From the NCBI GenBank assembly GCA_043814015.1, contig JBDRKM010000443.1, positions 8,926 through 72,925 on the forward strand: DNA of 64,000 nucleotides, read 5' to 3'. This DNA is from Pseudomonadota bacterium. GTDB lineage: Bacteria > Myxococcota_A > UBA796 > JAFGLY01. Positions within the stretch are counted from its first letter, which is position 1. The number at the start of each line of letters is the position of its first letter. The position numbers were made by a program, and so were the translations under genes. A model generated the notes under the pieces. The model saw only the letters and a program-made list of their open reading frames with translations. It was not told the origin of the DNA and ran no database searches. This document shows positions 16,465 to 40,340 of this stretch, piece after piece.

Positions 16465-18366
16465 ATGAGCCAGAATCCCCAGCAAGCCGCGCCCGTGGGC
16501 GTCACGCCCAAGGTCGTCACGCTGCGCGAACACATCGTCGAGATCGTCAGCGACTCCGGCCAGGGCGCCCAGAAGGCCGGCCAGTCCTTCAGCGCCATCA
16601 GCGCCAAGATGGGCAACGGCGTCTGGACGGTCGAGATCATCCCGGCCGAGATCAAGCCGCCCTCCCGCTCCTCGGCCGGCGCCTCGGGCATCCGCATCCG
16701 CATCGGCGATCACAACGTCACCAACATGGGCGACGAGGCCGACATGGTGGTGGCCCTGAACGAGCAGGTGCTCTACGGCCGCATCGAGCAGGGCGCCTAC
16801 CGGCGCGGCACCATCCTGCTGCTCGAGTCCAAGTGGGCGACGGATGCCAACCCCGCCATCTGCCAGGCCTACGCCGAGGCCGTCGATCGCTTCCGGGAGA
16901 TGGGGCTCGATGTCCGCGAGCTGGCCATCGAGGCCGCCTGCGTCGAGATCACCCCCACCCCCCAGCTCGGCATGAACATGTTCGTGCTGGGGATGATCTG
17001 CGAGATCTACCGGCGCGACTTCGAGATCGCGCGGGAGCAGATCCGCTTCGCCTTCCGCAAGAAGGCCACCAAGGTCGTCGAGATGAACCTGGAGCTGCTC
17101 GACGCGGGGCGCCTCTTCGCCCAGAGGGCCATCCCCGAGCGCTTCCAGATCGGGCGTTGGGACAACGACAAGCCCCTCATCGTCATGAACGGCAACGAGG
17201 CCGTGGGCCTGGGCGTGATGGCGGCCGGCATCGAGATGGTGGCCATGTACCCCATCACCCCCGCCACCTCCGCCTCCCACTACCTCGCCGAGGTCTTCCA
17301 CAAGGTGGGCGGCTGCGTCCACCAGGCGGAGGACGAGATCGCGGCCATCGGCTACGCCATCGGCGCCTCCTACGCGGGCAAGACCGCCTGCACCATCACC
17401 TCCGGCCCGGGCCTGGCCCTCAAGACCGAGTTCATCGGGCTGGCGGTCATGGCCGAGATCCCGCTGGTCATCGTGGTGGTCCAGCGCGGCGGGCCCTCCA
17501 CCGGCCTGCCCACCAAGGTGGAGCAGGGCGATCTGATGGCGGCCCTGCACGCCTCGCCGGGTGACGCCCCCAAGATCGTCATCGCCCCGGCCACCATCGA
17601 GGAATCCTGCCACTTCGTGGTCACCGCCCGCAAGCTGGCCGAGGCCTTCCGCGGCCCGGTCATGGTGCTGACGGACGCCAACCTCGCCACCGGCGTGCAG
17701 CCCTTCCCGCGGCCCAACGTCCAGGGCGAGTGGCTCTCCTCTCCCATCGATCAGTCCCCCTGGAAGGAGGGCGTGCTGCCCTACGACTGGGATCCGGACA
17801 CCGGCCTCTCTCCGCGCCCGATCCCCGGTCAAGCGGGTGGTGAGTACGTGCTCACCGGCCTGGCCCACACCAACCGCTCCTGGGTCGCCTATGATCCTGC
17901 CTCCAACCAGTACGGGGCCGAGATGCGCTCCCGCAAGCTGGCGGCGCTGCAGCGCACCCTGCGGCCGCCGAGGGTCTTCGGGGACGAGCAGGGCGAGCTG
18001 CTGATCGTCGGCTGGGGCTCCACGCTCGGCTCCATCGAGGAGGCCGTCGAGCGCGCCCGCGCCGATGGCTTCAGCGTCAGCGCCCTGCACCTGCGCTTCC
18101 TCTCGCCGCTGGAGCCCGGGCTCAAGGAGATCTTCTCGCGATTCGAGCGGGTCGTCACGGTGGAGATCAACTTCTCCGACTCCGCGACCGTGCCGCGCCC
18201 CACCGGTGAGCCGCGTCGGATGGGCCAGCTCGCCACCCTGCTGCGGACCCACACCCTGCTCGACATCGACTGCTACTCCAATGTCTACGGCCAGCCGCTC
18301 AGGCCCGGCCAGGTCTACGAAGAGATCCAGCGGCGGCTCGGCGCCGCCGGGAAGGAGGCTCGGTAA
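16465..18366 (+). CDS. korA: 2-oxoglutarate/2-oxoacid:ferredoxin oxidoreductase subunit alpha (gamma-alpha fusion)
   Basis: 633 aa. N-terminal gamma-like domain (SGQGAQKAGQ), then the alpha/pyrimidine-binding domain (MNGNEAVGLGVMAAG..YPITPAT). Confidence 0.9.
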   Translation: MSQNPQQAAPVGVTPKVVTLREHIVEIVSDSGQGAQKAGQSFSAISAKMGNGVWTVEIIPAEIKPPSRSSAGASGIRIRIGDHNVTNMGDEADMVVALNEQVLYGRIEQGAYRRGTILLLESKWATDANPAICQAYAEAVDRFREMGLDVRELAIEAACVEITPTPQLGMNMFVLGMICEIYRRDFEIAREQIRFAFRKKATKVVEMNLELLDAGRLFAQRAIPERFQIGRWDNDKPLIVMNGNEAVGLGVMAAGIEMVAMYPITPATSASHYLAEVFHKVGGCVHQAEDEIAAIGYAIGASYAGKTACTITSGPGLALKTEFIGLAVMAEIPLVIVVVQRGGPSTGLPTKVEQGDLMAALHASPGDAPKIVIAPATIEESCHFVVTARKLAEAFRGPVMVLTDANLATGVQPFPRPNVQGEWLSSPIDQSPWKEGVLPYDWDPDTGLSPRPIPGQAGGEYVLTGLAHTNRSWVAYDPASNQYGAEMRSRKLAALQRTLRPPRVFGDEQGELLIVGWGSTLGSIEEAVERARADGFSVSALHLRFLSPLEPGLKEIFSRFERVVTVEINFSDSATVPRPTGEPRRMGQLATLLRTHTLLDIDCYSNVYGQPLRPGQVYEEIQRRLGAAGKEAR

Positions 18367-22833: not shown

Positions 22834-25800
22834 AACCGGGCTGCGCCTGCTGCGCTCGCTCGTGGGGGATGCCGTCGGCACCCCCGCTCCGCTCCCCGGG
22901 CTCCCGACCGCGCTGCGCGGTTCGGCGGCCGTGGCCATCACCGAGGCCTGCGTGGCCGAAGCCGCCGGCCTGGGCGGGGGCGCACCCGCAGACCTGCTCG
23001 CCAACGCCTGGGAGGCCGAGCGCCGCCGGGAGGGCGTGAACCTCTTCGGGGGTGCGCTCACCGACGTGGTCGCCCCCACCTCGCGGGGCACCCTGGCCAG
23101 CGCCGTGGGCATGGCCCTGGCCGGCTCTCGGGCCACAGCCTTCCTCTCGGGGCCCAACCTGGCCGGCCAGCTCGATCTGCTGGCCGCCGCGGCCGGGCGG
23201 CACCAGCCGCTGGTGATCCACGGCGTGGCCCGCGCGCTCAACGGGCATGCCGGGGCGCGCGGCAGCGGGCACGAGGCCTGGCACGCCATCTCGGACGCGG
23301 GGCTGATCCAGCTGTTCGCGCGCAACGTGCAGGAGGCGGTGGACTTCGCCCTCGTCGGGAGACGTGTCGCCGAGACTTTCCTCCGGCCCGTGCTGGTCTA
23401 CATGGACGACGAGCGCACCGCCGCGGTCACCCAGGACGTCCTCCTCCCGGGGGCCGAGCTGGTGCGGCGCTACCTCGGCGCCCCTGGTGATCGCATCGAC
23501 TGCCCCACCCCGGCTCAGCGCATGCTCTTCGGTGAGCAGCGCCGCCGGGTGCCCCGCTGGCACGATCTGGAGCGCCCCGTGCTGCACGGCGCCATCCAGG
23601 GCCGCGGGGTCTGGAGCCTGGGCGCGGCCGGCTCGCGCCCCTTCACGTCCCAGGCGCGCCTGCCTGTGATCGAGGCCGCCTTCGCCGATTTCGCCGAGCT
23701 GACCGGGCGCCGCTACGGCCTGCTGCGCACCCACCGGGTGGAGGACGCCGAGGTGGTGCTGGTCTGCCAGGGCTCCAGCGGCGAGGCCGCCGAGTGCGTG
23801 GTGGACCACCTGCGCACCCAGAACAAGCAGAAGGTCGGCTGCATCTCTCTGCTCGGGCTGCGCCCCTTCCCCGGTGCGGCCCTGGTGAGCGCCCTGCAGG
23901 GCCGGCCCAGGGTGGCCGTGCTGGAGCGCGCCGACACCCTGCTGGCCGAGGATCCGCCCCTGCTGCGCGAGCTGCGCGCGGCCTTCGCCCGCGCCGTGGA
24001 GAACCACGGCGGCGCGGTGCACGCGGGCTACCCGGCGCTGGCCGCCGAGCGCGTGCCGCGGCTCCACGCCGCGATCTACGGCCTGGGTGGCTTCCCGCTC
24101 AGGGCCGGCGACCTGGTGGCCCTGGTGGAAGAGGTGCGCCGCGGGGGCCGGTCGTTGGTCTACCTCGGCATCGACTTTCACCGCAAGGACACCCGCTACC
24201 CCAAGCGCAAGGTGCTGCTGGACGCCCTCGCCCGCGAGTGGCCGGCGGAGCTGGCCCCCGGCCTCACCGGGTACCGCGCCCAGGACGTGCGCCCCGCGGG
24301 CGCCGTCACCCTGACCGTGCACCGCGTCGGTGGGGTCCCCGGCGGGGCCCTGGCGGCCGACATGGGCCGCATGCTGCACGTGGCCCTGGGCGGCTTCGTG
24401 CGCGGCCGGGCCGGCGAGAACTGGGAGCGCTGGCAGGCGCCCTGCATCGATCGGGTGGTCCACGCCCCCGTCCCGGTGGATCCTGGCGCGTCGGGTCCCG
24501 TGGACGTGGCGCTGGTCCTGGCGCTGTCCCCCCGTTCGGCGCGGGATCCCCTGGCGGAGCTGCGCAGCGGCGGCATCGCGCTGGTGGCCGACGCAGGCAA
24601 GGAGGGAGTGCCCCTGCTGCCCCAGGACACCTGGCTGCAGCTCGAGGCCCGCCATGTCCGCGTGCTGCCCGTCCCCTGCCCGGAGGGGGCCAACCACCCC
24701 GACTTCCGCGAGCGCGTGCTGGGCCTGGTCCTGCGCGCGCTGGGTGAGCTGGGGCGGAAGCTGCCCAGCCCCAAGAAGCTGGTGGCGGCTCGCGGCGCCC
24801 TGCTGGACGGCCTCGACCCACAGGAGATCACCCGGCGCCTGGCCATCTTCTCCGCCGCGTTGGAGCAGGGGGGCGCGCCGCGATCGGCACCAGATGCCCT
24901 GCCCATCCCCGCCATGCCGCCCAGCGTGCCCATGGCGGTGCGCCACTTCCACCGCGCCGACGGTACCTACGACAGCCTGCCGCGTTTCTGGGACCAGGTG
25001 GGCATCCTGTTCCGGGACGGCCACGTGGAGGAGCTCGTCCCCGATCCCTACCTCGCCACCAGCGTGGTCCCGCCGCTCACCGCCACCTTCAACGATTTTA
25101 CGCCGCTTCGGCGCTTCTTTCCCGCCTGGGAGCCCGCCCTCTGTACGGGCTGCGGCCGCTGCTGGACCGGCTGCCCGGACTCCGCCATCGGGCCCCTGGC
25201 CCTGCCCATCCCCACCCTGGTGGAGGGCGCCATGGCCCAGGCCGCCGCGCGGGGTGGCGCCATGGATCCGCTGCGCCCGCTGCTGTCCAAGGTCACCCAC
25301 CGCCTCGGCAAGCTGCTGCGCGAGAGCAAGGAGCAGCCCGCGGCCTTCGGGATCGTGCTGCGGGAGGCCGGTGCCCGCGTGCTGGAGAAGGCGAGCTTGC
25401 CAGCCGATCGCGCTCAGCCCGTCGCGGCCGCCCTGGAGGCCGCCGCCGCCGTGGTGGACGACCTCCCCATCGCCGGCACCCTGCCGTTCTTCGTCGACCC
25501 GGAGCAGCGCCAGGCCGGCACCGGCGAGATCCTGAGCCTCTCCGTGAACCCGGACGCCTGCAAGGGCTGCGGCATCTGCGCGCTCGCCTGTCCCGAGGGC
25601 GCCATGGGGATGGAGCCCCAGAGTACCGAGCGCGTGGCCTGGGCGCGCCGCGACTGGCAGCGCTGGGAGCAGCTCCCCGACAGCCCCGGCGAGACCATCG
25701 CCCGGGTGAGTGCGCACCCTGGGGTCGGCCCACTGGCGGCCATGCTCTTGTCTCGCACCTGTCTGCTGGGCCTCTCGGGCGGGGACTCCGCCGAGGCTGG

Positions 25801-29778: not shown

Positions 29779-30449
29779 GCGCCGCCCCCGAAGCCGAGCC
29801 CTCCTCCTTCCGGCTGGTGGCCACCCTCACCATCGCCGGCCTGGTCTCGGGCCTGCTGCTGGTCGGGGCCTACCAGATCACCAAGCCCATCATCGAGCGC
29901 AATGAGGCCGAGGCCCTGCAGGCTGCCGTGTTCCAGGTGCTGCCCGGCACCGAGGAGCTGCAGCCCCTGGTCCTGCGCGAGGGCCACCTGGATCCGGCCA
30001 CCCCGGCCGACAAGGACGCCCCCACCATCTACGCGGGCCGTCGTCGCGGGGGCGCGCTCGTGGGCTACGCCATCCCAGCCCAGGGCCCCGGCTTCCAGGA
30101 CACCATCAAGCTGATCTTCGGCTACGACCCGGCCCGGGCCGTCATCGTGGGCATGAAGGTGCTGGACTCCCGCGAGACCCCGGGGCTGGGCGACAAGATC
30201 AAGAAGGACAAGGCCTTCCTGGACAACTTCACCGCCCTGGCGGTGGATCCGGAGATCGTGCCCGTGGGAACGGGCAAGAAGGCCGCGCCCAACGAGCTGG
30301 ACTGCATCACCGGCGCCACCATCTCCTCCAAGGCCATCGCGAAGATCGTCAACGGCGGCATGGAGACGTGGCGCCCGGTGCTCGTGCCCGAGGGCCTTGG
30401 GGCGACCGAGCCCGAGCCACCGCCCGTGCCCCAGGAGGCCACGCCATGA
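29775..30449 (+). CDS. rnfG: Rnf complex subunit G (NqrC-like, FMN-binding)
   Basis: ATGA overlap with rnfD. Single N-terminal TM helix. ETPGLGDK and ITGATISS motifs. Confidence 0.9.
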   Translation: MSAAPEAEPSSFRLVATLTIAGLVSGLLLVGAYQITKPIIERNEAEALQAAVFQVLPGTEELQPLVLREGHLDPATPADKDAPTIYAGRRRGGALVGYAIPAQGPGFQDTIKLIFGYDPARAVIVGMKVLDSRETPGLGDKIKKDKAFLDNFTALAVDPEIVPVGTGKKAAPNELDCITGATISSKAIAKIVNGGMETWRPVLVPEGLGATEPEPPPVPQEATP

Positions 30450-31099
30450 GCGCCCTGGCTCCCGAAGCTCCGCGCACCGCGTCCCAGGCCTACGCAGAGT
30501 TCGTCAAGGGGATCTGGAAGGAGAACCCGGTCTTCGTGCAGGTGCTGGGCATGTGCCCCGTCCTCGCCGTCACCAACTCCGCCATCAACGCCCTGGCCAT
30601 GGGCGCCGCCACCCTGGTGGTGCTGGTGGGCTCCTCCTTCTTCGTCTCCCTCTTGCGGCACCACATCCCCAAGCAGGTGCGCATCTCCACCTACATCATC
30701 ATCATCGCCACCTTCGTCACGGTCACGGACTACGCCCTGAAAGCCATCTCCCCCGCGGTCCACGCCGAGCTGGGCGCCTTCATCGCGTTGATCGTGGTCA
30801 ACTGCATCATCCTCGGGCGCCAGGAGGCCTTCGCCGCCAAGAACACCGTCAAGCTGGCGGTGATGGACGCGCTGGGCATGTCGGCGGGCTTCACCATCGC
30901 GCTCCTGGCGCTGGGCGCTGTGCGCGAGATCCTCGGCAGCGGCTCGCTCTTCGGCGTCTCGCTGTTCGGCCCCCACTACGAGCCCTGGGTCATCATGATC
31001 CTGCCGCCCGGCGGCTTCATCATGCTGGGGCTGATCCTGCTGTTCTTCGCCTGGCTCAAGCAGCGCCGCCAGCGCGCCACGCATGGGGAGGCGGCCTGA
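30446..31099 (+). CDS. rnfE: Rnf complex subunit E (NqrD-like)
   Basis: ATGA overlap with rnfG. NPVFVQVLGMCP signature. Confidence 0.9.
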   Translation: MSALAPEAPRTASQAYAEFVKGIWKENPVFVQVLGMCPVLAVTNSAINALAMGAATLVVLVGSSFFVSLLRHHIPKQVRISTYIIIIATFVTVTDYALKAISPAVHAELGAFIALIVVNCIILGRQEAFAAKNTVKLAVMDALGMSAGFTIALLALGAVREILGSGSLFGVSLFGPHYEPWVIMILPPGGFIMLGLILLFFAWLKQRRQRATHGEAA

Positions 31100-31677
31100 T
31101 GGGTGCGTTCATCGGCATCTTCATGGGCTCGCTGGTGATCAACAACTTCACCCTGAGCTACTTCCTCGGCATCTGCCCCTTCCTGGGGGTCTCGGGCCGC
31201 GTGGTCACCGCCTTCCGCCTGGGGCTGGCCAACATCTTCGTGATGCTCATCACGGCGTTCTGCACCTGGGGCCTGAACACCTTCATCCTGCCGCACGCCC
31301 CCTACCTGCAGATCATCAGCTACATCCTCGTCATCGCCTCCACCGTGCAGTTCGTGGAGATGGTCATCAAGAAGCTCTCCCCGGAGCTGTTCCGGGCGCT
31401 GGGCATCTTCCTGCCCCTCATCACCACCAACTGCGCCATCCTGGGCCTGGCCCTCTTCATGACCAACAAGGGCTTCGGCCTGGCCGAGGGCATGGTCTAC
31501 GCGCTCGGCGCGGGCGGCGGCGTCACCCTGGCCCTGGTGCTGATGGCCGGTCTTCGGGAGGAGGCCGAGCTGTCGGACATCCCCGCGCTCATGCGCGGCA
31601 CCGCCATGAGCCTCATCATCGCCGGCCTGCTGTCGCTGGCCTTCATGGGCTTCGCGGGCCTGTTCGCGGCGGGCTGA
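31099..31677 (+). CDS. rnfA: Rnf complex subunit A (NqrE-like)
   Basis: 1-nt TGATG overlap with rnfE. NNFTLSYFLGICPFLGVS and ITTNCAILG signatures. Confidence 0.9.
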   Translation: MGAFIGIFMGSLVINNFTLSYFLGICPFLGVSGRVVTAFRLGLANIFVMLITAFCTWGLNTFILPHAPYLQIISYILVIASTVQFVEMVIKKLSPELFRALGIFLPLITTNCAILGLALFMTNKGFGLAEGMVYALGAGGGVTLALVLMAGLREEAELSDIPALMRGTAMSLIIAGLLSLAFMGFAGLFAAG

Positions 31678-31874
31678 TGCTCACCCATCTGCTCGCCGTG
31701 CTCGGCCTCGGGCTCGCCTGTGGCCTGTGGGTGATCCTCCAGCGCTGGGTGGCGAAGCGCGATCCGGGCCAGCCCGGGGTGGAGGGCAGCGTGGGGTGTT
31801 CGCATGGGGAGTGCGAGCAACCCGACGGCGCCTGCGCGGGGTGCAGCCTGAAGGGGGAGTGCTCGGGGCGGTGA
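31677..31874 (+). CDS. Small single-TM protein with Cys-rich tail (NqrM / FeoB-associated Cys-rich-like)
   Basis: 65 aa. 1-nt overlap with the rnfA stop. TM helix LLAVLGLGLACGLWVIL, then GCSHGECEQPDGACAGCSLKGEC. Its 3' two-thirds is duplicated at 37312-37483. Confidence 0.6.
   Translation: MLTHLLAVLGLGLACGLWVILQRWVAKRDPGQPGVEGSVGCSHGECEQPDGACAGCSLKGECSGR
31712..31815. repeat. Left copy of a perfect 104-bp direct repeat
   Basis: Identical base-for-base to 37312-37415 (offset exactly 5600 bp). Similarity continues imperfectly for about 40 more nt (GCGCCTGCGCGGGGTGCAG shared). Confidence 0.95.
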
Positions 31875-31888
31875 CGCCCTGACCGCGC

Positions 31889-34210
31889 CTACTCCCTCCT
31901 CCTCCTCATCCGTCCAACCAGCGTCCCGAGGAACGCCAGCGGAAGGAACAGCGCCTGGCTCGAGGCGTTCTTGCCGGAATTGCAGCAGCCGTCGCCCTCC
32001 TCGCCGCTGTCACCGGTGCCGTCGTCGGTGTCGCCGGTGCCGCCGTCCACCGCGATGGCGACGCTGTGGGTCGTGAGGATCGCGTTGTCCATGTCTTCAC
32101 CGCCCCAGGCCAGGATCAGCGCGGTGGCGCCGTCCGGGTAGTCGTCTGCGGTCAGGGGCTCGCTGATCGAGACCGTGGCCGTGCCGTCGCCCGCCGCCAG
32201 CAGGGAGACACCCATGGGCAAGGACTCGCCGAAGAAGTGGGTGGCCTCCCCATCGGGATCGGTGGCTGTCAGCGTGATGGCCGCCCCAGCTTCGTTGTCG
32301 AGGGTCTCCGGCCCGCTCAGCTCGGGCGGGCGGTCGACGGTGACGGTGGCCTCGAACGTGTGCTCGCTCGTCGTCTCCATCGAGCTGGTGCCCACCAGCG
32401 TGATCGACAGGTCGTAGCTGCCGCTGGCCAGGCTCTCGTCCGGGCTCACCAGGATGGCAGCCACCGCCTCGTCGCCCGGCCGGATCACCGGTGGGAGCGG
32501 CGCGAGGACGCTGGGGTTCAGCGCTACCTCAGAGGAGAAGAGCAGCTCGGGGCAGTAGATGGCCACGTTGCCTGTGTTCTCCAGGACCAGCACCAGGGGC
32601 CCGCCCCCGCCCGCCTCCACGAGTGTGTCGAGCTCGGAGCCGGAGCTGTCCAGGGACTCGTCCGGCGGAGCGAAGGTCATCTGCAATGCGCCGCTCGCCA
32701 CGTCGCCCAGGGTGTCCCGGACGGTGATGGGCAGGTCCTCGACGGGCTCTCCGCCCCAGTCCTGGCCCTGCACCTCCACCGTGACCAGCCCGGGCGCGTA
32801 GTAGGTGGCCGCCACGTAGCCCCAGTCGAAGCTCTCGCCATGATCGAGGACCATGCCACCGAAGTCGAACATGTCGTCCTGGCCTTCGCCGTAGGACGCC
32901 AGCACGAACCAGTCCCGGCCGCCGTAGGGCAGCTCCATGGCGACCAGATCGTCGGGGGACACGTAGCGGATGGGGATGTCCCAGTCAGGGCTGTGCGAGT
33001 GGGGATCGCAGCGCTGTGGGGGGGCCTCGTGCTGGCGCTCGGGGTCTTCCATGATCCCTGTCCCCACGCCGCCATCGCGCGCAGAGCAGATGTTGTAATA
33101 GACGTAGTCGTCCTCGTTGGGACCGACGCCACTGTTGCCGTTTCCCTCCCAGTTCCCGTCGAGCTGGACCTGGTTGTTGCCGCTCAGGACGTGGTCCGCG
33201 TGGATGGTCACCTTCATCAGGCCGGTGGCTCCGTTCGGGATCTCGATGTCGAAGTCGAGCTTGTCGTCACCGTTCCAGGCCTGGTTGGACAGCGTGGCTC
33301 CGTCGCAGCCCTCGACGCTGACGGCCGCGGTCGCGTCCTGGCCGACGTCGATCTTCGTGTCGAGGGTGACCGTGGTCGAGACGGTGCAGGGGCAGTCGTT
33401 GGTGCCGACGGCGACGCCTCGAGGATCCACTTCCTCGACCCTGGGGGCGGTGGTGGTGTGGTTCTGTGTGACGTGCTCCAGGGGAGGCATGGCGGCCGCG
33501 TGCATGTCGTAGGCCTCGTTGGCGGGCCGGTACTCGCCGTGGCCGATGTGGCCGATCATGGTTTCGAAGAGCAGCTTCGTCCGCGCTCTATCAGTGATGA
33601 CGCAGGTGGTGTCCGGGTAGGCGAAGAACTCTCGTGAGCCGAACCATTCGGCCTTGCCGCTGCCGTGGCACGCATCCAACAGGATGATCGTGTTCGCGTC
33701 GGAGAAGGTGGCCTCGATGCCCGCCTGTGTGAGGTTGATGCCGTGAGACAACGCCACGTTGTGTTCGTCGGGGCTCCAGACCTTGCCGATCTGTCCTGCC
33801 TGGTACACCCCGTCGCGGAGCAAGGCGTCGTAGTCGGCGTTCCGCGTCGCCTGGTCGCCGGGCCCATAGCAGCCGATCCGGAATCCACTCGCTCCCCCGT
33901 GGGAGTGCACCCGTAGCACACCTGCCTGGCCAAGCGCGGCCCAGGTCGTCGCGTTGGCGGCCGCCGGCCCTATCAGCGCCTGGTATCCGTAGTGCTGGTA
34001 CTCAGCGAGGCGGCCCAGGCTGTCGTCGGGCTCCCCCGCACCATCCACAGCGACAGAGGCGAGATCAACCCCGGTGCAGGGCTCGAACAGCACCGCCGTG
34101 GCGACGTCGGGCGTCTCGTTCTCCGCGGCCACGGCGAAACGCAGCGGCGCCAGGCCGGCGATGGCGAACAGGAGGAAGGCGGTTCGCGGCTTGTTCGGCA
34201 TACGTTGCAT
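31889..34210 (-). CDS. Secreted clan-CD (gingipain/caspase-like) cysteine peptidase with MYXO-CTERM-like sorting tail
   Basis: Start at in-frame ATG 34210 (MQRMPNKPRTAFLLFAIAGLAP signal peptide, GAGG 8 nt upstream). His-Gly and Cys dyad context VLRVHSHGG ... IILLDACHGSG. C-terminus GDGCCNSG..LFLPLAFLGTLVGRMRRRRE. Confidence 0.65.
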   Translation of the reverse strand: MQRMPNKPRTAFLLFAIAGLAPLRFAVAAENETPDVATAVLFEPCTGVDLASVAVDGAGEPDDSLGRLAEYQHYGYQALIGPAAANATTWAALGQAGVLRVHSHGGASGFRIGCYGPGDQATRNADYDALLRDGVYQAGQIGKVWSPDEHNVALSHGINLTQAGIEATFSDANTIILLDACHGSGKAEWFGSREFFAYPDTTCVITDRARTKLLFETMIGHIGHGEYRPANEAYDMHAAAMPPLEHVTQNHTTTAPRVEEVDPRGVAVGTNDCPCTVSTTVTLDTKIDVGQDATAAVSVEGCDGATLSNQAWNGDDKLDFDIEIPNGATGLMKVTIHADHVLSGNNQVQLDGNWEGNGNSGVGPNEDDYVYYNICSARDGGVGTGIMEDPERQHEAPPQRCDPHSHSPDWDIPIRYVSPDDLVAMELPYGGRDWFVLASYGEGQDDMFDFGGMVLDHGESFDWGYVAATYYAPGLVTVEVQGQDWGGEPVEDLPITVRDTLGDVASGALQMTFAPPDESLDSSGSELDTLVEAGGGGPLVLVLENTGNVAIYCPELLFSSEVALNPSVLAPLPPVIRPGDEAVAAILVSPDESLASGSYDLSITLVGTSSMETTSEHTFEATVTVDRPPELSGPETLDNEAGAAITLTATDPDGEATHFFGESLPMGVSLLAAGDGTATVSISEPLTADDYPDGATALILAWGGEDMDNAILTTHSVAIAVDGGTGDTDDGTGDSGEEGDGCCNSGKNASSQALFLPLAFLGTLVGRMRRRRE

Positions 34211-34329
34211 GGGAAACCTCGCAGGCTGCTGGTTTCGCACCACTTGATCGGGCGCTCCAGGAAGGGAGTCGAGGTCGAATGGTGCGCGTGGGAGACGATA
34301 CCAGAGAATCGCAACCGCGGCACCTGCCA

Positions 34330-34550
34330 AGCGTCACGTGCCGGCGCACCGTCTTCCCGGACTTGTTGCCCAGGGCACCGCGCAGCTCGCGGTGTGGTGA
34401 CGGTCGCGGTCGGGGCGGTAGAGGTGGAAGAAGCGGCTGTCGCTGCGCCCACGGTCGAGGTAGTCGCGGAAGGTCCTCTCCACCCAGGTGGCAGGCGACG
34501 GCTTTCGTCCGGGGCCTGGGCCAGAGAGTCGTCGAGGTTCTCCAGCATGC
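34330..34550 (-). pseudogene. Possible remnant of an IS91-family transposase N-terminal zinc-binding domain
   Basis: The minus strand reads MLENLDDSLAQAPDES..LPP. After a frame change it reads WVERTFRDYLDRGRSDSRFFHLYRPDRDRHH, which aligns from memory to LP.FV..EF.A.L.CG.L..GF.RLRC..C with Arg (CGY) at each expected Cys. It is short and frameshifted. Confidence 0.3.
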
Positions 34551-34868
34551 GAGGGCCCCGCTGGGGTGGGTGAGCGCATCGAGGGCGTGCTGCGGGGCGC
34601 GGGCGTGGGCTCCTTCGATGCCCTGGTGGAGTGCACCAACGTCCGCCCCCACCCCGACGACGAGCGCCTGTGGATCATCGGCGGTCGTTCACCATCGGCG
34701 ACGAGGACGCGCGGGCGCGGGACAAGCGGACGGTGACGGAGCTGCATGGGCCAGGAGCGCGCTCCAAAGAACAGCGGCCAGGATGCCTTGTTTGACGCAC
34801 GCTCTCAGGCTGCGGGCTCGCCACTGCCCGTCTCCCCGACCGGCGTGGCGACCACCGTCCTGCGCGGG

Positions 34869-36269
34869 TCAGTCCCCGCTTCTCGCCAGGAGGTCGTGGA
34901 GGAACTCTCCGACCGCCTCCGAGCCCCTGGTGATCGCCTGGGGCACCGAGCCCAGCTCTCCTCTCCTCATGCGCGCGATCCAGGTGCGCATGCTCGCCCC
35001 GCCATCTCCGAAGGCTGCGTCCACGCACGAACCCCCGAATCTGCCTGCGTTGTTCACCAGCTCCCAGACCCCTGGCCTCTGCACGCCGAGCAGGTCTTCG
35101 CAGGCGACATCCACTACCGTGCTCACGAAGTTCGCTGCTGCTGAGTAGGGGTTGAAGCCAGCCGCGGTGGTCGTCGCGCCCACCAGCCCGGAGGAGACCG
35201 CTCCTTGGCCGGAGCGGTGCTCACCCCAGCCAGCAAAGGCACCACCGAGTAAGTTCAGCGCGCCGCCTACCGACTTGAAAATCCTGACTCCTCTCTCGGC
35301 CCGTATCCACCTGGTGAGCTGCCCTCTCACGGGTGCCATCCGCTGCTCGAACGGGATCGGAAGACGCCGCGTCGGATCGCCGGCTGCTCTCCTGGCCTGC
35401 GCCAGCAGCGCGTGCTCGGCCTGGGCGATGCGCTCCGCGGGTGCGGTCACCTGCCTTGTCCAGACCTGCCCGCCCGCGTAGGTCCCGTTCTGAGCGTGAT
35501 CGGTCCATGGCGAGCCGTGAGGCTCCTCGGGTTCGCCCGTGAATTCGAGGTCGAATGGGACGTCGAGCCCGTTGATCCGGGCGACCTTCGTGCCCGGCTG
35601 GATCCCCTCGGTGAGCCAGAACTCGAGCCGGAGCAGGTCGCCGCGCGCGGTGCAATCGGCGGTGTTCTGCACCAGGTGGGGGTCGTCGAAGGACACCGTG
35701 GTGTCACTGCACCGGAAGATCCGCTCGTCGTCATCGGGCATGGGGTAGCGGGGGAGGTCGCGGCCGTGGATCTCGAGCCGCACCCGCGGGAGATTACCGT
35801 TGCAGAAGGCGTACTTCCAAGAATCCGCCATCGCGGCTCGGTCGAGGCCCCCGTTCTCGATCCCGGTCACCTCGACCCACTCAGCCTTCGGCTCGAAGCG
35901 CCGCCAGACCTCCATTCCCGTCTCCTGACCGGGACCGCTGGCCGCGTCTCCCTCCCAGGAGCCGACGAGCGTGCCGCCCTCTTCGCTGGCCTCGAGACGG
36001 TAGCAGTGGTTCCCTCTGACGTGGTAGCACCCCGAGACGAGCGTCGCACCCTGGTCTGTCTCTGGTCCGCTCCCGCGAAGCCGCTCACCATCGAGGAACC
36101 CGTGGATGCCGTGGCCCACCCGCACCCAGCCTCTGTGGAGGGCGCCGGCTTCGTCCTGGAACTCGATGTTCCATGATCCCCGCAGCAGGTCCTCCTCGTC
36201 GGCCATGGCGACCGCGGGGAGCGTGGCGGGCAGGAGGAGACTGGTGATGAGGAGCGCATTGTGACCCAT
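34869..36269 (-). CDS. Secreted protein of unknown function with Gly/Ala-rich C-terminal region
   Basis: 466 aa. Signal peptide MGHNALLITSLLLPATLPAVAMA. AAGGAGG RBS 6 nt upstream. No recognised catalytic motif. Confidence 0.7.
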   Translation of the reverse strand: MGHNALLITSLLLPATLPAVAMADEEDLLRGSWNIEFQDEAGALHRGWVRVGHGIHGFLDGERLRGSGPETDQGATLVSGCYHVRGNHCYRLEASEEGGTLVGSWEGDAASGPGQETGMEVWRRFEPKAEWVEVTGIENGGLDRAAMADSWKYAFCNGNLPRVRLEIHGRDLPRYPMPDDDERIFRCSDTTVSFDDPHLVQNTADCTARGDLLRLEFWLTEGIQPGTKVARINGLDVPFDLEFTGEPEEPHGSPWTDHAQNGTYAGGQVWTRQVTAPAERIAQAEHALLAQARRAAGDPTRRLPIPFEQRMAPVRGQLTRWIRAERGVRIFKSVGGALNLLGGAFAGWGEHRSGQGAVSSGLVGATTTAAGFNPYSAAANFVSTVVDVACEDLLGVQRPGVWELVNNAGRFGGSCVDAAFGDGGASMRTWIARMRRGELGSVPQAITRGSEAVGEFLHDLLARSGD

Positions 36270-37311
36270 GGCGGCCTCCTTTCGGGTGGTGTGTGGAGTC
36301 GCCTGGGCAACGAGGATGCGTCCCGTGCACTTTCAGCGCGGCCTGTCAACAGGTTGTCACCAGGTCCCGGCGGTCGTACGTCGCGCGGCTCGTCGTCCTA
36401 CGCGTCTGGTCGGCCTTCGCCTCGCCCCAATCCCCTGTCCCGGAAGTCCACCGACGAATGACTGCGCCCGGCATGGAGGCTATGGGCTCCAGGCTACGGG
36501 ATGCTGGGCCCGTCTGACGGCGGCCGCGCGAATGCGCAGAGTGACGCCTCGAAGCAGCCGGCGCGGCCGGGGGAGGCGTGCTGGCGGCGGTGACGCCGAG
36601 TTCGCTGGCCAGATCCTGGGCCCGAGCCTTCTCCAAGGGGGTGTAGACCCGAGCGACCCTGATGCTGGAGGTCGGCTCGGAAGCCGGCAGGCAAGCCCCC
36701 GGCATCGCCAGCAAGCCGGACTTCTGCCCCTGCCCAGGTGCCCCGACTCGCTACGTCAGTAGGCTCGGCTGTCCCCCGACGTCGGGGATGCCACGCATTG
36801 AACCTCCAGCCAGAGTATTCATCTTACCTTGGATATCGACAAGCGCTGGTAGCACCCCCACCCCACGCAGGACCTTTCGATACGCTCCGCAGGGGCTGGC
36901 GAGGGTGCACTCCGCCCGCCCAGAGGAGCGCGGCCCTCGAAGGAGCCGGCGCTCGTCCAGGTGGGTGCCGATCCGTGCCCCTCCGGCCGCCAGAGCGCTC
37001 CCGACAGCCACGAGGGCACTCCCGAAGGCCGTCTTCGCCCACACCCCACCCTCGCTGCTCGTTCAGGTGGCTGTTTCCGGGTTGGGTGGGCTCAAGGGAC
37101 GGCCACCTGCTCGCCTGGCGGAGCGCGAGCTGACCTCCAGCGCCCTCCTGCGATGGCCGGCAGCCAGCGAGGCACTTGGCGCGAAGTAGCGCGGGTCACC
37201 TACGCGCGTAGGCAGCACCAGCGCGCGAGCGGTCACCCGCTTGCCACAGTGCGGCCAGCAGCGAGGACTTCGGCGCCGAGGCCGAGATCGTCGAGGTCGA
37301 GGACGCGGAGC

Positions 37312-37415
37312 GCTCGCCTGTGGCCTGTGGGTGATCCTCCAGCGCTGGGTGGCGAAGCGCGATCCGGGCCAGCCCGGGGTGGAGGGCAGCGTGGGGTGTT
37401 CGCATGGGGAGTGCG
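37312..37415. repeat. Right copy of the perfect 104-bp direct repeat
   Basis: Identical to 31712-31815. Confidence 0.95.
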
Positions 37416-37483
37416 CGACCGGATGCGAGGAGCACGAGAGCGCCTGCGCGGGGTGCAGGCTCGAGGGGGAGTGCGGCAGGTAG
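37312..37483 (+). pseudogene. Displaced 3' fragment of the Cys-rich mini-gene (lacks start codon and first half of the TM helix)
   Basis: Encodes ..LACGLWVILQRWVAKRDPGQPGVEGSVGCSHGEC, then a variant tail ATGCEEHESACAGCRLEGECGR, ending at TAG 37481-37483. The upstream in-frame sequence is unrelated and Arg/Gly-rich. Confidence 0.7.
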
Positions 37484-37511
37484 CGGCACGAGCGTGCGCC
37501 CAGGGCCCCCT

Positions 37512-37680
37512 CCAGGTTGCCACATCCCGCCCAGGACCCCTGCCAGGTTGCCACCTGCGCCGGCCCGCGGAATGGGACCGTGGGAAAAGTGACGTTTCAG
37601 GGTTGGCCGCTTCGGATCGCGCCATCGAGTGGGCTCTGAGTGGCAACAACAGGCCTGCCCTGGGCGCTCTTTGGCAACTT
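37512..37680. repeat. Symmetric motif array: CCAGGTTGCCAC x2 forward (37512, 37543) and (G)TGGCAAC x2 reverse (37640, 37672)
   Basis: Read directly. 31-32 bp phasing. Symmetric about ~37596, where an A/T-rich near-palindrome GAAAAGTGACGTTTC sits. Lies 64-230 nt upstream of ATG 37744. Confidence 0.6.
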
Positions 37681-37743
37681 GGGGCCCACGCTGGGCGCCG
37701 CCCGGTTACCCCCCCCACCCCACCCCCCGGAGCCCCGAGCACC

Positions 37744-38862
37744 ATGCACATCCTCTACGGCGTCGTCGGCGAGGGCATGGGGCATGCCACCCGCAGCGCG
37801 GTGGTCATCGCCCACCTGCTCGATCAGGGGCACCTCGTGCGCGTCGTGGTGTCAGGCCGCGCCCACGCCTTCCTCCAGCAGCGCTTCGCCGCCCACCCCC
37901 GCTGCGATCTGCAGGAGATCCAGGGCCTGGGCTTCGCCATGGACGGGATGGAGGTGGATCTCGAGGCCACCATCCTGGAGAACATCGAGCGCGCCCCCGA
38001 GGGCCTGCTGCGCAACCTGCTGGCCTATACGAAGGTGGTGCAGTCCGGGCCGCCGCCCGAAGCGGTGATCAGCGACTTCGAGTCCTGGGCCTGGCTGTAC
38101 GCCCGCAACCACTTCCTGCCGGTGGTGAGCCTCGACAACATGCAGGTGCTCAACCGCTGCCGGCATCCGCCGGAGGTGGTGGCCGATGAGTCTTTCCAGC
38201 TCGCCAAGCTGGCCGTGAAGTTGAAGCTGCCCGGCGCCTGGCACTACCTCGTCACCAGCTTCTTCTTCCCCGAGGTCCGCAAGCCGCGCACGACGCTGGT
38301 CCCCCCCATCCTGCGCCCCGAGATCCTGGCGGCCCGGCGCGAGCCTGGCGATCATGTGGTGGTCTACCAGGCCGCCGCCGCGCTCACGGCCTGGCTGCCC
38401 GTGCTCGCCACCCTTCCGTTCCGCTTCCGCGTGTACGGCAGCGGGCGTGAGGGTGTCGAGGGCAACCTCGATCTGCGCCCGTTCTCCGCCCAGGGCTTCG
38501 TGGACGACCTGCGCACCGCCCGCGCCGTGCTGGCCGGCGGCGGCTTCTCGCTCATGTCCGAGGCCGTCCACCTCGGGGTCCCGTACTTCGCCGTGCCGCT
38601 GGGACAGCAGTACGAGCAGACCCTCAATGCCCGGTACCTCTGCTGGCTGGGCTACGGTGACTGGGCCCCGGCGCCCGAGCGCGAGCGCCTGCTGCGCTTC
38701 CTGGTCAGCGCCGAGGACTGCGCCCGGGCCCTCAACCGCTACCCGCGCCAGGACAACTCCCTGGCCCTGGCCTGCGTGGACGAGCTCCTCCAGCGCATCG
38801 CCGCCGGCGAGCCCCGCCCCGACCGCCTGGCGAACGAGGGGATGGCGTGCTGGGAGGGGTAG
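37744..38862 (+). CDS. Glycosyltransferase (GT28/MGT-like, MJ1255-type)
   Basis: In-frame ATG 37744 giving MHILYGVVGEGMGHATRSAVVIAHLL (G-rich nucleotide-sugar loop). C-terminal GGFSLMSEAVHLGVPYFAVP. Upstream part of ORF 36961.. is junk. Confidence 0.7.
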   Translation: MHILYGVVGEGMGHATRSAVVIAHLLDQGHLVRVVVSGRAHAFLQQRFAAHPRCDLQEIQGLGFAMDGMEVDLEATILENIERAPEGLLRNLLAYTKVVQSGPPPEAVISDFESWAWLYARNHFLPVVSLDNMQVLNRCRHPPEVVADESFQLAKLAVKLKLPGAWHYLVTSFFFPEVRKPRTTLVPPILRPEILAARREPGDHVVVYQAAAALTAWLPVLATLPFRFRVYGSGREGVEGNLDLRPFSAQGFVDDLRTARAVLAGGGFSLMSEAVHLGVPYFAVPLGQQYEQTLNARYLCWLGYGDWAPAPERERLLRFLVSAEDCARALNRYPRQDNSLALACVDELLQRIAAGEPRPDRLANEGMACWEG

Positions 38863-38912
38863 GGGATCGGCCCTTCCTGTGTCAGAATGCCCCCTGTGCA
38901 CCAGGAGCCCCC

Positions 38913-40340
38913 ATGCGCCTCGCCCTCCTCCTGCTCGCCGCCTGTACCCCCGTAGGGGACGGCCCCTCCGACGACACCGCGGTCGACGACACGGCGGTCG
39001 AGGAGGTCCCCCTCGAGATCGCCGATCTCACGCTGGAGCCCTCGGCGGCCATCACCCTCGTGGCCACCCTGCGCTGGACCACCCCGCTCGAGGCCACGGG
39101 CGCCGTGGAATTCGGACCTGCCGAGGGCGACTTCGAGCTGGTGGTGGACCACGGCGACGTCGGCACCGAGCACGAGGTCGTCGTGGTCGGCATGCACGAG
39201 GCCACCGCCTACCAGCTGCGGGCCGTCTCCACCACCGCGGGCGGCCAGGAGGTGCGCTCCGAGCCCGTGACCTTCACCACCGGCACCGTGCCCGACCCCT
39301 GGCGCCCCCTGGTCCTCGACGCCTACGATCCGGCCCGCACCCAGCCGGGCTGGACCCTCTTCAACGTGGCCACCGGCTACTCCACGCGCACTCTGGTGGT
39401 GATGGTGGACCTCGACGGCGAGCCCGTCTGGTACTTCGACGACGGGGACGGCGGGCGCTCCGACGTGGTGCCCGAGCTGGTGGACGGCCGCCGCGTGCTC
39501 ATCGGGCCCGGCGTGCCTTCGGGCAGCCACCCCATCGCGGTGGACCTGGCGGGCGAGGTGCTCTGGACCGGCCCCCAGCAGGATCTCGGCTTCACCGACG
39601 GCGGCTTCCACCACGTCTTCCACGAGCTTCAGGACGGCACCCACATGCTGGTGGAGTACACCTCCGACTCCCTCGGCTACATGGGCGACACCATCCAGGT
39701 CTTCGACGACGACCTCAACATCGTGTGGGACTGGTGCACCTTCGATCACCTCGCGGATCACCCCGCCTGGGTCCACACCAACGCCGTCTTCCTGGACGAG
39801 CCGGGCGGCCTCTTGTACGCCAACTCCTACCAGATGGGGCAGACCTACAAGATCCACCGGGAGAGCGGCGATGTCCTTTGGACCTTCGGCGAGGGCGGCG
39901 ACTTCGCCCCCGACCCCTGGGAGGTGGAGCCTTTCCCCTACCACGCCCACGCCTTCCAGATCCTGCCCGACGGGCACGTGCTGATGTACGACAACGGCTC
40001 GTCCGAGCGCGGCTGGTCGCGCGTGGTGGAGTACGCCCTGGACGAGGACAGCATGACCTCCGAGATCGTCTGGCAGTACCCGGGGCGCCTGGCCTGGGAT
40101 CCCTGGTGGGCCGCGGCCTGGGGGGACGTGGAGCGCCTGGAGAACGGCAACACCCTCATCAACGCCAGCGCCGGTACCAACACCCCGGCCGAGACCGTCA
40201 GCCGCCTCTTCGAGGTGACCCCGGAGGGCGACACCGTCTGGCAGGCCTGGCTCTACCAGGGCCTGGGCCTGGAGCTCGGCGCCTACGCCGTGAGCCGCGT
40301 CCCCGCCATCGCCCGGCCCATCGCCGGGGAGGGCAGGTGA
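38913..40340 (+). CDS. Arylsulfotransferase (ASST)-like beta-propeller lipoprotein with N-terminal FN3-like domain
   Basis: In-frame ATG 38913. Lipobox LLLLAACT. LRWTTPLEATGAVEFG FN3-like block. HHVFHELQDGTHML and LENGNTLIN motifs typical of the ASST family. Confidence 0.65.
   Translation: MRLALLLLAACTPVGDGPSDDTAVDDTAVEEVPLEIADLTLEPSAAITLVATLRWTTPLEATGAVEFGPAEGDFELVVDHGDVGTEHEVVVVGMHEATAYQLRAVSTTAGGQEVRSEPVTFTTGTVPDPWRPLVLDAYDPARTQPGWTLFNVATGYSTRTLVVMVDLDGEPVWYFDDGDGGRSDVVPELVDGRRVLIGPGVPSGSHPIAVDLAGEVLWTGPQQDLGFTDGGFHHVFHELQDGTHMLVEYTSDSLGYMGDTIQVFDDDLNIVWDWCTFDHLADHPAWVHTNAVFLDEPGGLLYANSYQMGQTYKIHRESGDVLWTFGEGGDFAPDPWEVEPFPYHAHAFQILPDGHVLMYDNGSSERGWSRVVEYALDEDSMTSEIVWQYPGRLAWDPWWAAAWGDVERLENGNTLINASAGTNTPAETVSRLFEVTPEGDTVWQAWLYQGLGLELGAYAVSRVPAIARPIAGEGR

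Follow-up and report, generated by a model that had tools for sequence, protein, structure and literature searches.

Integrase-borne islands and cis-mobilizable elements (CIMEs) target the 3' ends of genes, namely tRNA and tmRNA genes or, for ICESt1 and ICESt3, fda. Elements of the IS91 family, in which terIS lies upstream and oriIS downstream of the transposase gene tnpA, form single- and double-stranded circles, generate no target duplication and, when termination fails, as it does in 1-14% of events, mobilize their upstream flank (PMC13181058). In the complex class 1 integrons built by the insertion sequence common region element ISCR1, one copy of the 3' conserved segment (3'-CS) is followed by ISCR1, the captured genes and a second, truncated 3'-CS copy, an arrangement explained by a circle that arose through aberrant rolling-circle replication and was inserted via homologous recombination (PMC7707992, PMC3575428). 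Here we describe a small islet at positions 31875-37311 of a 64,000-nt stretch of DNA (hereafter the window) from an uncultured Myxococcota bacterium, which interrupts a mini-gene at the end of an rnf gene run and is flanked by two partial copies of that gene. The window corresponds to C443:8926-72925 of a metagenome-assembled genome (MAG; G000, the source genome) of 9.35 Mb in 507 contigs with ~70% GC. We tentatively propose that the islet was delivered on a circle derived from IS91-type rolling-circle transposition, which integrated by homologous recombination with the mini-gene.

The islet is framed by a direct repeat: repeat finding and direct string comparison agree that positions 31712-31815 and 37312-37415 are identical over 104 nt (100% identity, offset 5600), with the adjoining bases unlike each other. 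No other exact direct repeat in the window comes near this length, the runners-up measuring 31 and 28 nt, and the two copies found here are the only ones in the 9.35-Mb assembly. Homology continues beyond the 104-nt core for a tail of ~60 nt, shifted by a 12-nt in-frame indel and reaching roughly to the stop codons; within it 31812-31862 and 37424-37474 can be compared as ungapped 51-mers with 84% identity. From the left to the right chromosomal flank the features of the locus are:

31099-31677, plus strand: rnfA, the left chromosomal flank and last canonical gene of the rnfCDGEA run (PF02508 at 1e-53; TIGR01943)
31677-31874, plus strand: complete mini-gene of 65 amino acids with tail L (31816-31874), recognized by its translation and by homologues directly after rnfA in nine relatives
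31712-31815, no strand: left copy of the 104-nt repeat, equal to nucleotides 36-139 of the mini-gene by string comparison
31889-34330, minus strand: P813 (probable start 34210, 773 amino acids), cargo gene for a secreted or surface protein, with a codon-phase signal and a GC content at third codon positions (GC3) of 0.88
34332-34393, minus strand: 62-nt scrap of a DDE (DDE_Tnp_1_4) transposase gene, 85% identical to C222:856-917
34396-34547, minus strand: fossil of an IS91-family transposase gene, from its N-terminal zinc-binding region (..LPPGWVERTFRDYLDRGRS..), 85% identical to C351:559-711
34869-36269, minus strand: P466, orphan cargo gene whose product has an N-terminal signal-like helix, with a clear codon-phase signal and GC3 of 0.83
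36270-36783, no strand: unique non-coding DNA upstream of P466, with no codon-phase signal, no other copy in the genome and no Rfam or tRNA match
36784-37259, minus strand: 476-nt fossil of the 3' terminus of an IS91-family (Y2/HUH, rolling-circle) element, a member of a dispersed repeat family
37260-37311, no strand: unique 52-nt linker at the right-hand novel junction
37312-37483, plus strand: headless mini-gene copy, made of the right copy of the repeat (37312-37415) and a diverged tail R (37416-37483)
37496-37705, no strand: palindromic dispersed repeat of 210 nt, with matches on at least 15 contigs and full-length copies on C500 and C33
37744-38862, plus strand: glycosyltransferase (GT) gene, the right chromosomal flank (PF13528 at 1e-107)

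The headless copy begins at nucleotide 36 of the gene, the first 35 nt being absent and preceded instead by unrelated DNA, ends in ...CATGCEEHESACAGCRLEGECGR, and occupies the ancestral position just upstream of the GT gene. We compared the locus with nine relatives from the same family, all Myxococcota MAGs; a scan of genome contigs with the family alignment returned these same nine, and a metagenome scan with the mini-protein returned two short contigs only. In G003, which belongs to another genus of the family, rnfA, the mini-gene and the GT gene are contiguous, with the GT start 13 nt past the mini-gene stop. Positions 14-768 of the G003 contig align to 31099-31844 of the window and positions 826-1872 to 37740-38786, so that 57 nt separate the two homology blocks in G003 and 5.9 kb in the source genome. 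Because the three genes are directly adjacent in G003, 31875-37311 is an insertion; it is lineage-specific and entered the 3' part of the rnf-terminal mini-gene. None of the nine relatives has a second mini-gene copy. The ancestral neighbors have been kept, rnfA beside the left copy (L) and the GT gene beside the right copy (R), a layout that is the Campbell topology, as from a single reciprocal insertion into a gene. An earlier note on this stretch, made from the sequence alone, had reported perfect 104-bp direct repeats offset by 5600, a complete left copy, and a right copy lacking its head and diverging in its tail; repeat search and string comparison bear out all three, and place the start of the right copy at nucleotide 36. 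Its view of an insertion that supplies a replacement end is likewise upheld, as tail L differs from tail R and the insertion is lineage-specific. The comparison with relatives that it had suggested yielded an empty site in G003, and the alternative outcome it had named, a duplication shared by relatives that have no empty site, was not encountered, since the duplication is in no relative.

The repeat itself is a mosaic. When the two copies are codon-aligned, the core is identical at 102 of 102 positions and the tail at 42 of 54 (78%), with the switch falling at nucleotides 139/140; the tail differences are nearly all non-synonymous, to which a 4-codon indel is added. Within genus g4 the same core diverges to 77-82% and the same tail to 68-77% identity, and because core and tail thus diverge at similar rates, evolution of the tail is too slow to explain the mosaic. 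Based on these identities, tails L and R stem from alleles that diverged at about the level of species, while the core either is resident DNA present in two copies or was converted; in both cases the switch at 139/140 is a recombination breakpoint inside the mini-gene. The mosaic is therefore the footprint of homologous or illegitimate recombination and not a conserved attachment (att) core. Each tail keeps a mix of ancestral and derived states, and comparison with the relatives is indecisive as to which is native, L and R being about equally distant from them.

The right-hand end of the islet carries the remains of a transposable element. The segment 36784-37259 belongs to a repeat family with 37 matches in the source genome (68-92% identity, many at contig ends) and one weak match across the nine relatives. 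The first base is the same in every aligned copy (window position 36784), and the copies extend for 200-520 nt, with nothing in common beyond either end; the family hence has one fixed terminus, variable 5' ends and no terminal inverted repeats, as expected of elements that start at oriIS and terminate imprecisely. Read along the minus strand, the longer copies carry ...LPWADLLWRTFSANSMACPHCGKRMTVRALVLP followed by ~430 nt of conserved non-coding DNA. The LPWADLLWRTFSANSMACPHCGKRMTVRALVLP copies align to the C-terminus of a full-length transposase encoded on C145 (Zn_Tnp_IS91, PF14319, plus Y2_Tnp, PF04986), and the one on C487 forms a fusion with the beginning of Y2_Tnp (28.5 bits). It is because of this alignment and this fusion that we identify 36784-37259 as the 3' end of an IS91-family element; the islet has no intact gene, and the assignment draws on the other genomic copies and on the C145 transposase. 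The islet fossil keeps CWPHCGKRVTARALVLP, the C-terminal motif of the transposase, at ~37210-37260, and the upstream part of tnpA is gone. Pseudogenes make up most, if not all, of this subfamily. In light of the 37 matches in the source genome versus a single weak one in nine relatives, the islet belongs to this organism and the subfamily appears to have been active in its lineage.

The position and orientation of this fossil are what connect it to the duplication. Only 52 nt separate the truncated 5' side of the IS stump from the point at which copy R is cut short, and along the minus strand the order is copy R (37483-37312), linker, IS fossil (37259-36784), non-coding DNA, P466, P813 and copy L, which in the sense of tnpA reads as host segment, IS, oriIS-type end, cargo and host segment. 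The 52-nt linker between stump and copy R has no significant match in the genome, and none to the IS copies upstream of their CPHCG motif; across 37260-37313 the plus strand displays 18 consecutive codons ending in G or C (SEDFGAEAEIVEVEDAER), and the linker may be a scrap of some further gene. The second fossil of the family, at 34396-34547, is frameshifted and has Arg codons where Cys codons are expected, and the C351 stretch that it resembles aligns to residues 24-116 of the C145 transposase. The N-terminal and 3' fossils are collinear only on the circularized islet; we considered, and do not claim, that they are the halves of one interrupted IS. The DDE scrap beside it traces to a 495-residue open reading frame (ORF) on C222 that matches PF13701 at 1e-26. 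Of the further statements in the earlier note, the transposase-like fossil proved to be of the IS91 family; it is placed right beside the truncated copy and directs attention to another, previously described (ISCR-like) route.

Several further observations come from elsewhere in the genome. On C51 a gene for a 1428-residue protein has an internal piece of 340 nt (17867-18205) of which a second copy, 97.6% identical, is found 6.2 kb further downstream (24073-24411). About 50-70 nt upstream of another scrap with that IS91 C-terminal motif (~70 nt) is where this duplicate is located; the case suggests that the subfamily tends to carry upstream host fragments. A further repeat family of ~250 nt (C416:6925-7180, C90:2585-2743 and more than 40 others), 85-100% identical and often at contig ends, adjoins some copies of the IS91 stump. 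Finally, a full-length Y2_Tnp ORF at C464:703-2247 immediately follows a tyrosine-recombinase ORF in the same orientation; this Y2_Tnp ORF is of an IS91 subfamily unlike that of the islet.

Starting from the observed insertion, partial duplication, mosaic breakpoint, position and orientation of the IS91 fossils and absence of a recombinase, we infer a circle, its rolling-circle origin and a homologous crossover. In the donor, an IS91 copy would have been located at nucleotides 35/36 of a mini-gene allele, antiparallel to it and with P813 and P466 downstream, and read-through from oriIS would have yielded a 5.6-kb circle, that is, the product of one-ended (read-through) rolling-circle transposition of an IS91/ISCR element. 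The incoming circle would have carried a 3' fragment of the mini-gene allele (nucleotide 36 to the stop), P813, P466 and the IS91-family element, the mini-gene fragment representing the upstream (terIS-side) flank of that element. A single reciprocal, homology-driven crossover between this fragment and the resident mini-gene would then have integrated the circle, leaving on the left a complete gene made of resident head, core and incoming tail, and on the right a headless copy with the resident tail beside the GT gene. The mosaic would call for an additional step, perhaps biased mismatch repair of the heteroduplex between the edge of homology and the point of resolution, gap repair or a later import, and the IS would afterwards have decayed to its 476-nt 3' stump. 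It is the match between the order of the copies and that of the ISCR1 complex class 1 integrons that leads us to favor a circle with homologous recombination, and we consider acquisition by an IS91/ISCR-like, homology-driven process, followed by decay, to be the most likely history of the islet.

A number of points weigh against this reconstruction. The mosaic is only partly explained by it: the donor allele would need a tail ~20% diverged and yet a 104-nt core identical to that of the resident, and the additional step is required precisely because core and tail diverge at similar rates in g4. The IS is only a stump, with no intact transposase, no terIS and at most a putative oriIS, and that it adjoins the junction was recognized post hoc. 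The donor arrangement, a mini-gene followed by P813 and P466, turned up in none of the genome-contig, metagenome and protein searches. Furthermore, the duplication on C51, the sole other case in the genome of an IS fossil with a gene fragment, has its IS outside the repeats and represents a different type of event; the empty site is that of another genus (G003), the genomes compared including none of the same genus; and the structure as a whole rests on a MAG contig.

The strongest rival, which we nevertheless think unlikely, starts from the mosaic and explains it directly. DNA from a related species would have entered by homology-facilitated illegitimate recombination, with a crossover at about nucleotides 139/140 and the other end joined illegitimately at nucleotide 36 of a second chromosome copy, giving overlapping junctions, so that the resident 104 nt were duplicated and the IS91 stump was a passenger or the site of the break. 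Under such a scheme the 104 nt are perfect since both copies are resident, tail L is the allele of the donor, and the mixture of ancestral and derived states in both tails is what two diverged alleles should show; the lack of a recombinase on the contig speaks for it as well, and IS scraps of two families resemble junk that was carried along. It demands, on the other hand, an unequal event between two chromosome copies and a crossover in DNA of ~80% identity in which identical runs measure only 10-17 nt; there is no microhomology at 37311|37312, and the position and orientation of the IS stump at the junction become a coincidence. We accordingly rank the circle, tentative as it is, above illegitimate insertion.

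The search for a recombinase bears on the second rival. Six-frame searches with stops read through detected no tyrosine or serine recombinase (PF00589, PF00239) on C443 (76 kb), and the genome-wide matches, 14 to tyrosine and 18 to serine recombinases, are all on other contigs. The five ORFs of 36268-37551 have no Pfam match, no excision, replication or transfer genes are present in the islet, and we conclude that it is an immobile fossil without a recombinase of its own. There are no tRNA or tmRNA genes in 30000-39000, which rules out a target of that type, and Rfam gave one chance-level match; a scan for promoters and terminators was uninformative. That the locus is a decayed integrase-type island, akin to a CIME, with the repeats serving as attL and attR within the 3'-terminal part of a protein-coding gene and an integrase that was lost or acted in trans, is in our estimation improbable. 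The direct repeats at both ends, a left copy that restores the gene with a substitute end and the empty site in G003 all have the look of such an island, and recombinases that might act in trans are encoded elsewhere in the genome. Against this stand the lack of any recombinase remnant in the islet or on the contig and of mobility genes, the confinement of the repeat to this locus, an identity pattern that is a recombination mosaic rather than a conserved core, and an IS91-family fossil that supplies a route independent of a recombinase; beyond the repeats, the integrase island has no positive support. The earlier note was thus correct in reporting no integrase, but its proposal of an integrase-type element with a 104-bp attachment site found no support. 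As for its two suggested fates, the islet is indeed a decayed remnant, and mobilization in trans is possible with nothing in support of it.

We consider it quite improbable that the assembly was mis-resolved, the true genome containing head, core, tail R and the GT gene in succession and the 5.6 kb being a separate circle or part of another locus. The 104-nt repeat is shorter than a read pair in a MAG of 507 contigs, so both resolutions of the graph are possible, and the integrated form has the same k-mer content as an empty site plus a circle. Still, molecules with the headless junction 37311|37312 must really exist, the bin has no contig with the alternative path, and the islet bears a repeat family specific to the source genome. 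Moreover, on a 5.6-kb molecule the mini-gene fragment would still adjoin the IS91 stump, making that molecule the proposed circle; were this reading true, the islet would turn into that circle and the finding itself would remain. The last alternative, that the mini-gene region was duplicated in situ long ago and then diverged, the interior genes being native, finds some comfort in a composition close to the genome's own and is effectively refuted by the absence of both the duplication and the interior genes from every relative, by the undivided site in G003 and by a perfect 104-nt core that is incompatible with an old event.

The coding content of the islet consists of two minus-strand genes with a clear codon-phase signal, P813 and P466, which confirms the two opposite-strand secreted-protein genes read by the earlier note; the ORF-poor DNA that it put at about 1.4 kb is present too, and as DNA without codon-phase signal (34331-34868 and 36270-37311) measures ~1.6 kb. 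P813 comprises a signal peptide, an uncharacterized N-domain, He_PIG/cadherin-type Ig repeats and a MYXO-CTERM-like tail (a weak NF038112 match). No homologue was found among 150 genomes of the order, and a word-indexed search returned P813 alone; phmmer produced 225 distant matches, among whose sequences His104 and Cys181 of the N-domain are invariant. The AlphaFold2 model of P813 has a mean predicted local distance difference test score (pLDDT) of 82 and weak fold matches to DdvA, caspase-4 and SAVED-CHAT (TM-score 0.25-0.29). The N-domain (33011-34210) defines an unnamed family of secreted proteins, some with type IX secretion system tails, in which His104 and Cys181 occur in HG...AAC contexts and the predicted fold is weakly caspase/CHAT-like; it is possibly an undescribed clan-CD-like peptidase family. 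P466 has no homologue in the 150 genomes of the order or among 5.8e9 proteins and no Pfam or NCBIfam match, and its single-sequence AlphaFold2 model (pLDDT 38) is unusable.

In composition the islet departs from its surroundings modestly. Its GC content is 0.66-0.70 versus 0.70-0.75 in the flanks, which sustains the lower GC noted earlier if not its prominence, and the GC3 values of P813 and P466 compare with 0.93-0.98 in the neighboring genes and a genome median of 0.91, placing them at the 29th and 12th percentile, respectively, among the long ORFs of the genome. As proof of foreign origin we rejected composition as weak, given percentiles no more extreme than these. The interior genes have no second copy in the genome and are absent from the relatives; the cargo is lineage-specific with below-median GC3, and the segment 31875-37311 is foreign DNA.

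The interrupted gene is itself of some interest. Its ATG overlaps the stop codon of rnfA, which is 86-90% identical to the orthologues in family relatives, and it encodes a protein with one transmembrane helix, the motif RDPGQPGVEG (R-x-DP-x-QPGVEG) and a Cys-rich tail. Neither Pfam nor NCBIfam has a match to the mini-protein, even with the threshold at E = 10, and identity with NqrM or another known family was rejected in view of this and of the lack of a detectable NqrM match. In the family alignment H4, C15, G16, W18, Q22, D29, QPGVEG and two Cys residues are invariant. The family was found in ten genomes only and always lies directly after rnfA.

The junction after the mini-gene varies across the family. 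G008 has a 2.4-kb insert at the same spot, which is unrelated to the islet and comes without mini-gene duplication or IS91 sequence. The contigs G007:C98 and G009:C592 break off 67-150 nt past the mini-gene stop, which hints that this junction has repeats or differs between strains there too, and in both genomes the GT gene is carried by a different contig, where at least 2.3 kb of other DNA precedes it. The GT of the source genome is 70-76% identical to the orthologues of G003, G005, G007, G008 and G009 and 61% identical to that of G002, and an arylsulfotransferase-like gene follows downstream. Between the headless copy and the GT gene the palindromic repeat fills a gap of 260 nt (13 nt in G003); in it two forward ..CCAGGTTGCCAC copies face two reverse copies around GAAAAGTGACGTTTC.

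Nearly all known cases of ISCR-type capture come from the resistance regions of clinical proteobacteria. Should the favored reconstruction be true, rolling-circle transposition and homologous recombination would have built a small chromosomal islet in an environmental myxobacterium, and the locus would caution against reading an integrase and an att site into every pair of direct repeats by which the 3' end of a gene is restored. It also marks the junction behind the rnf mini-gene as a hot spot of strain-specific DNA, and the tail of the mini-gene as open to exchange. Taken by itself the islet is a decayed, non-autonomous and fairly ordinary insertion that would not surprise a specialist in mobile elements. 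Very improbable, and offered as speculation, is the notion that an IS91-family lineage in uncultured Myxococcota acts as a chromosomal ISCR-like capture system that shuttles genes for surface and secreted proteins between strains, anchored by homologous recombination in a small Cys-rich Rnf accessory gene and swapping its fast-evolving tail each time, or that the 104-nt repeats still permit excision of a cis-mobilizable 5.6-kb circle driven by RecA or by a recombinase in trans.

Set beside the known systems, the islet shares with integrase islands and CIMEs the direct repeats at both ends, a gene kept intact by a substitute 3' end and an empty site in relatives, and with CIMEs the lack of a recombination module. 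It differs from them in a repeat that is long and mosaic, in having no recombinase remnant, no related element and no second att-like copy, and in the IS91-family scraps that mark its junction. The resemblance to one-ended transposition by IS91, IS801 and IS1294 concerns the genomic copies, which have one exact terminus past the transposase C-terminus and variable upstream ends, and a subfamily that encodes Zn_Tnp_IS91 plus Y2_Tnp; unlike in those elements, the sequence next to the terminus has no evident conserved target of the GTTC/CTTG type and instead shows a conserved CCCC run, either the IS end or the target. Relative to the ISCR1 complex integrons, the IS of the islet is a 476-nt stump without a transposase, 163 nt of a small protein-coding gene of the chromosome take the place of an integron 3'-CS as anchor, the anchor copies are mosaic rather than identical throughout, the cargo comprises two orphan secreted proteins and not resistance genes, and the host is an uncultured Myxococcota MAG. 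The architecture is nonetheless theirs: the fossil of an IS91-family element lies in a segment that has a direct, partial copy of host sequence at each end, its 5' (terIS-less) side abuts one truncated copy, the cargo past the oriIS-type end is followed by the second copy, and there is neither an integrase for this step nor a target duplication.

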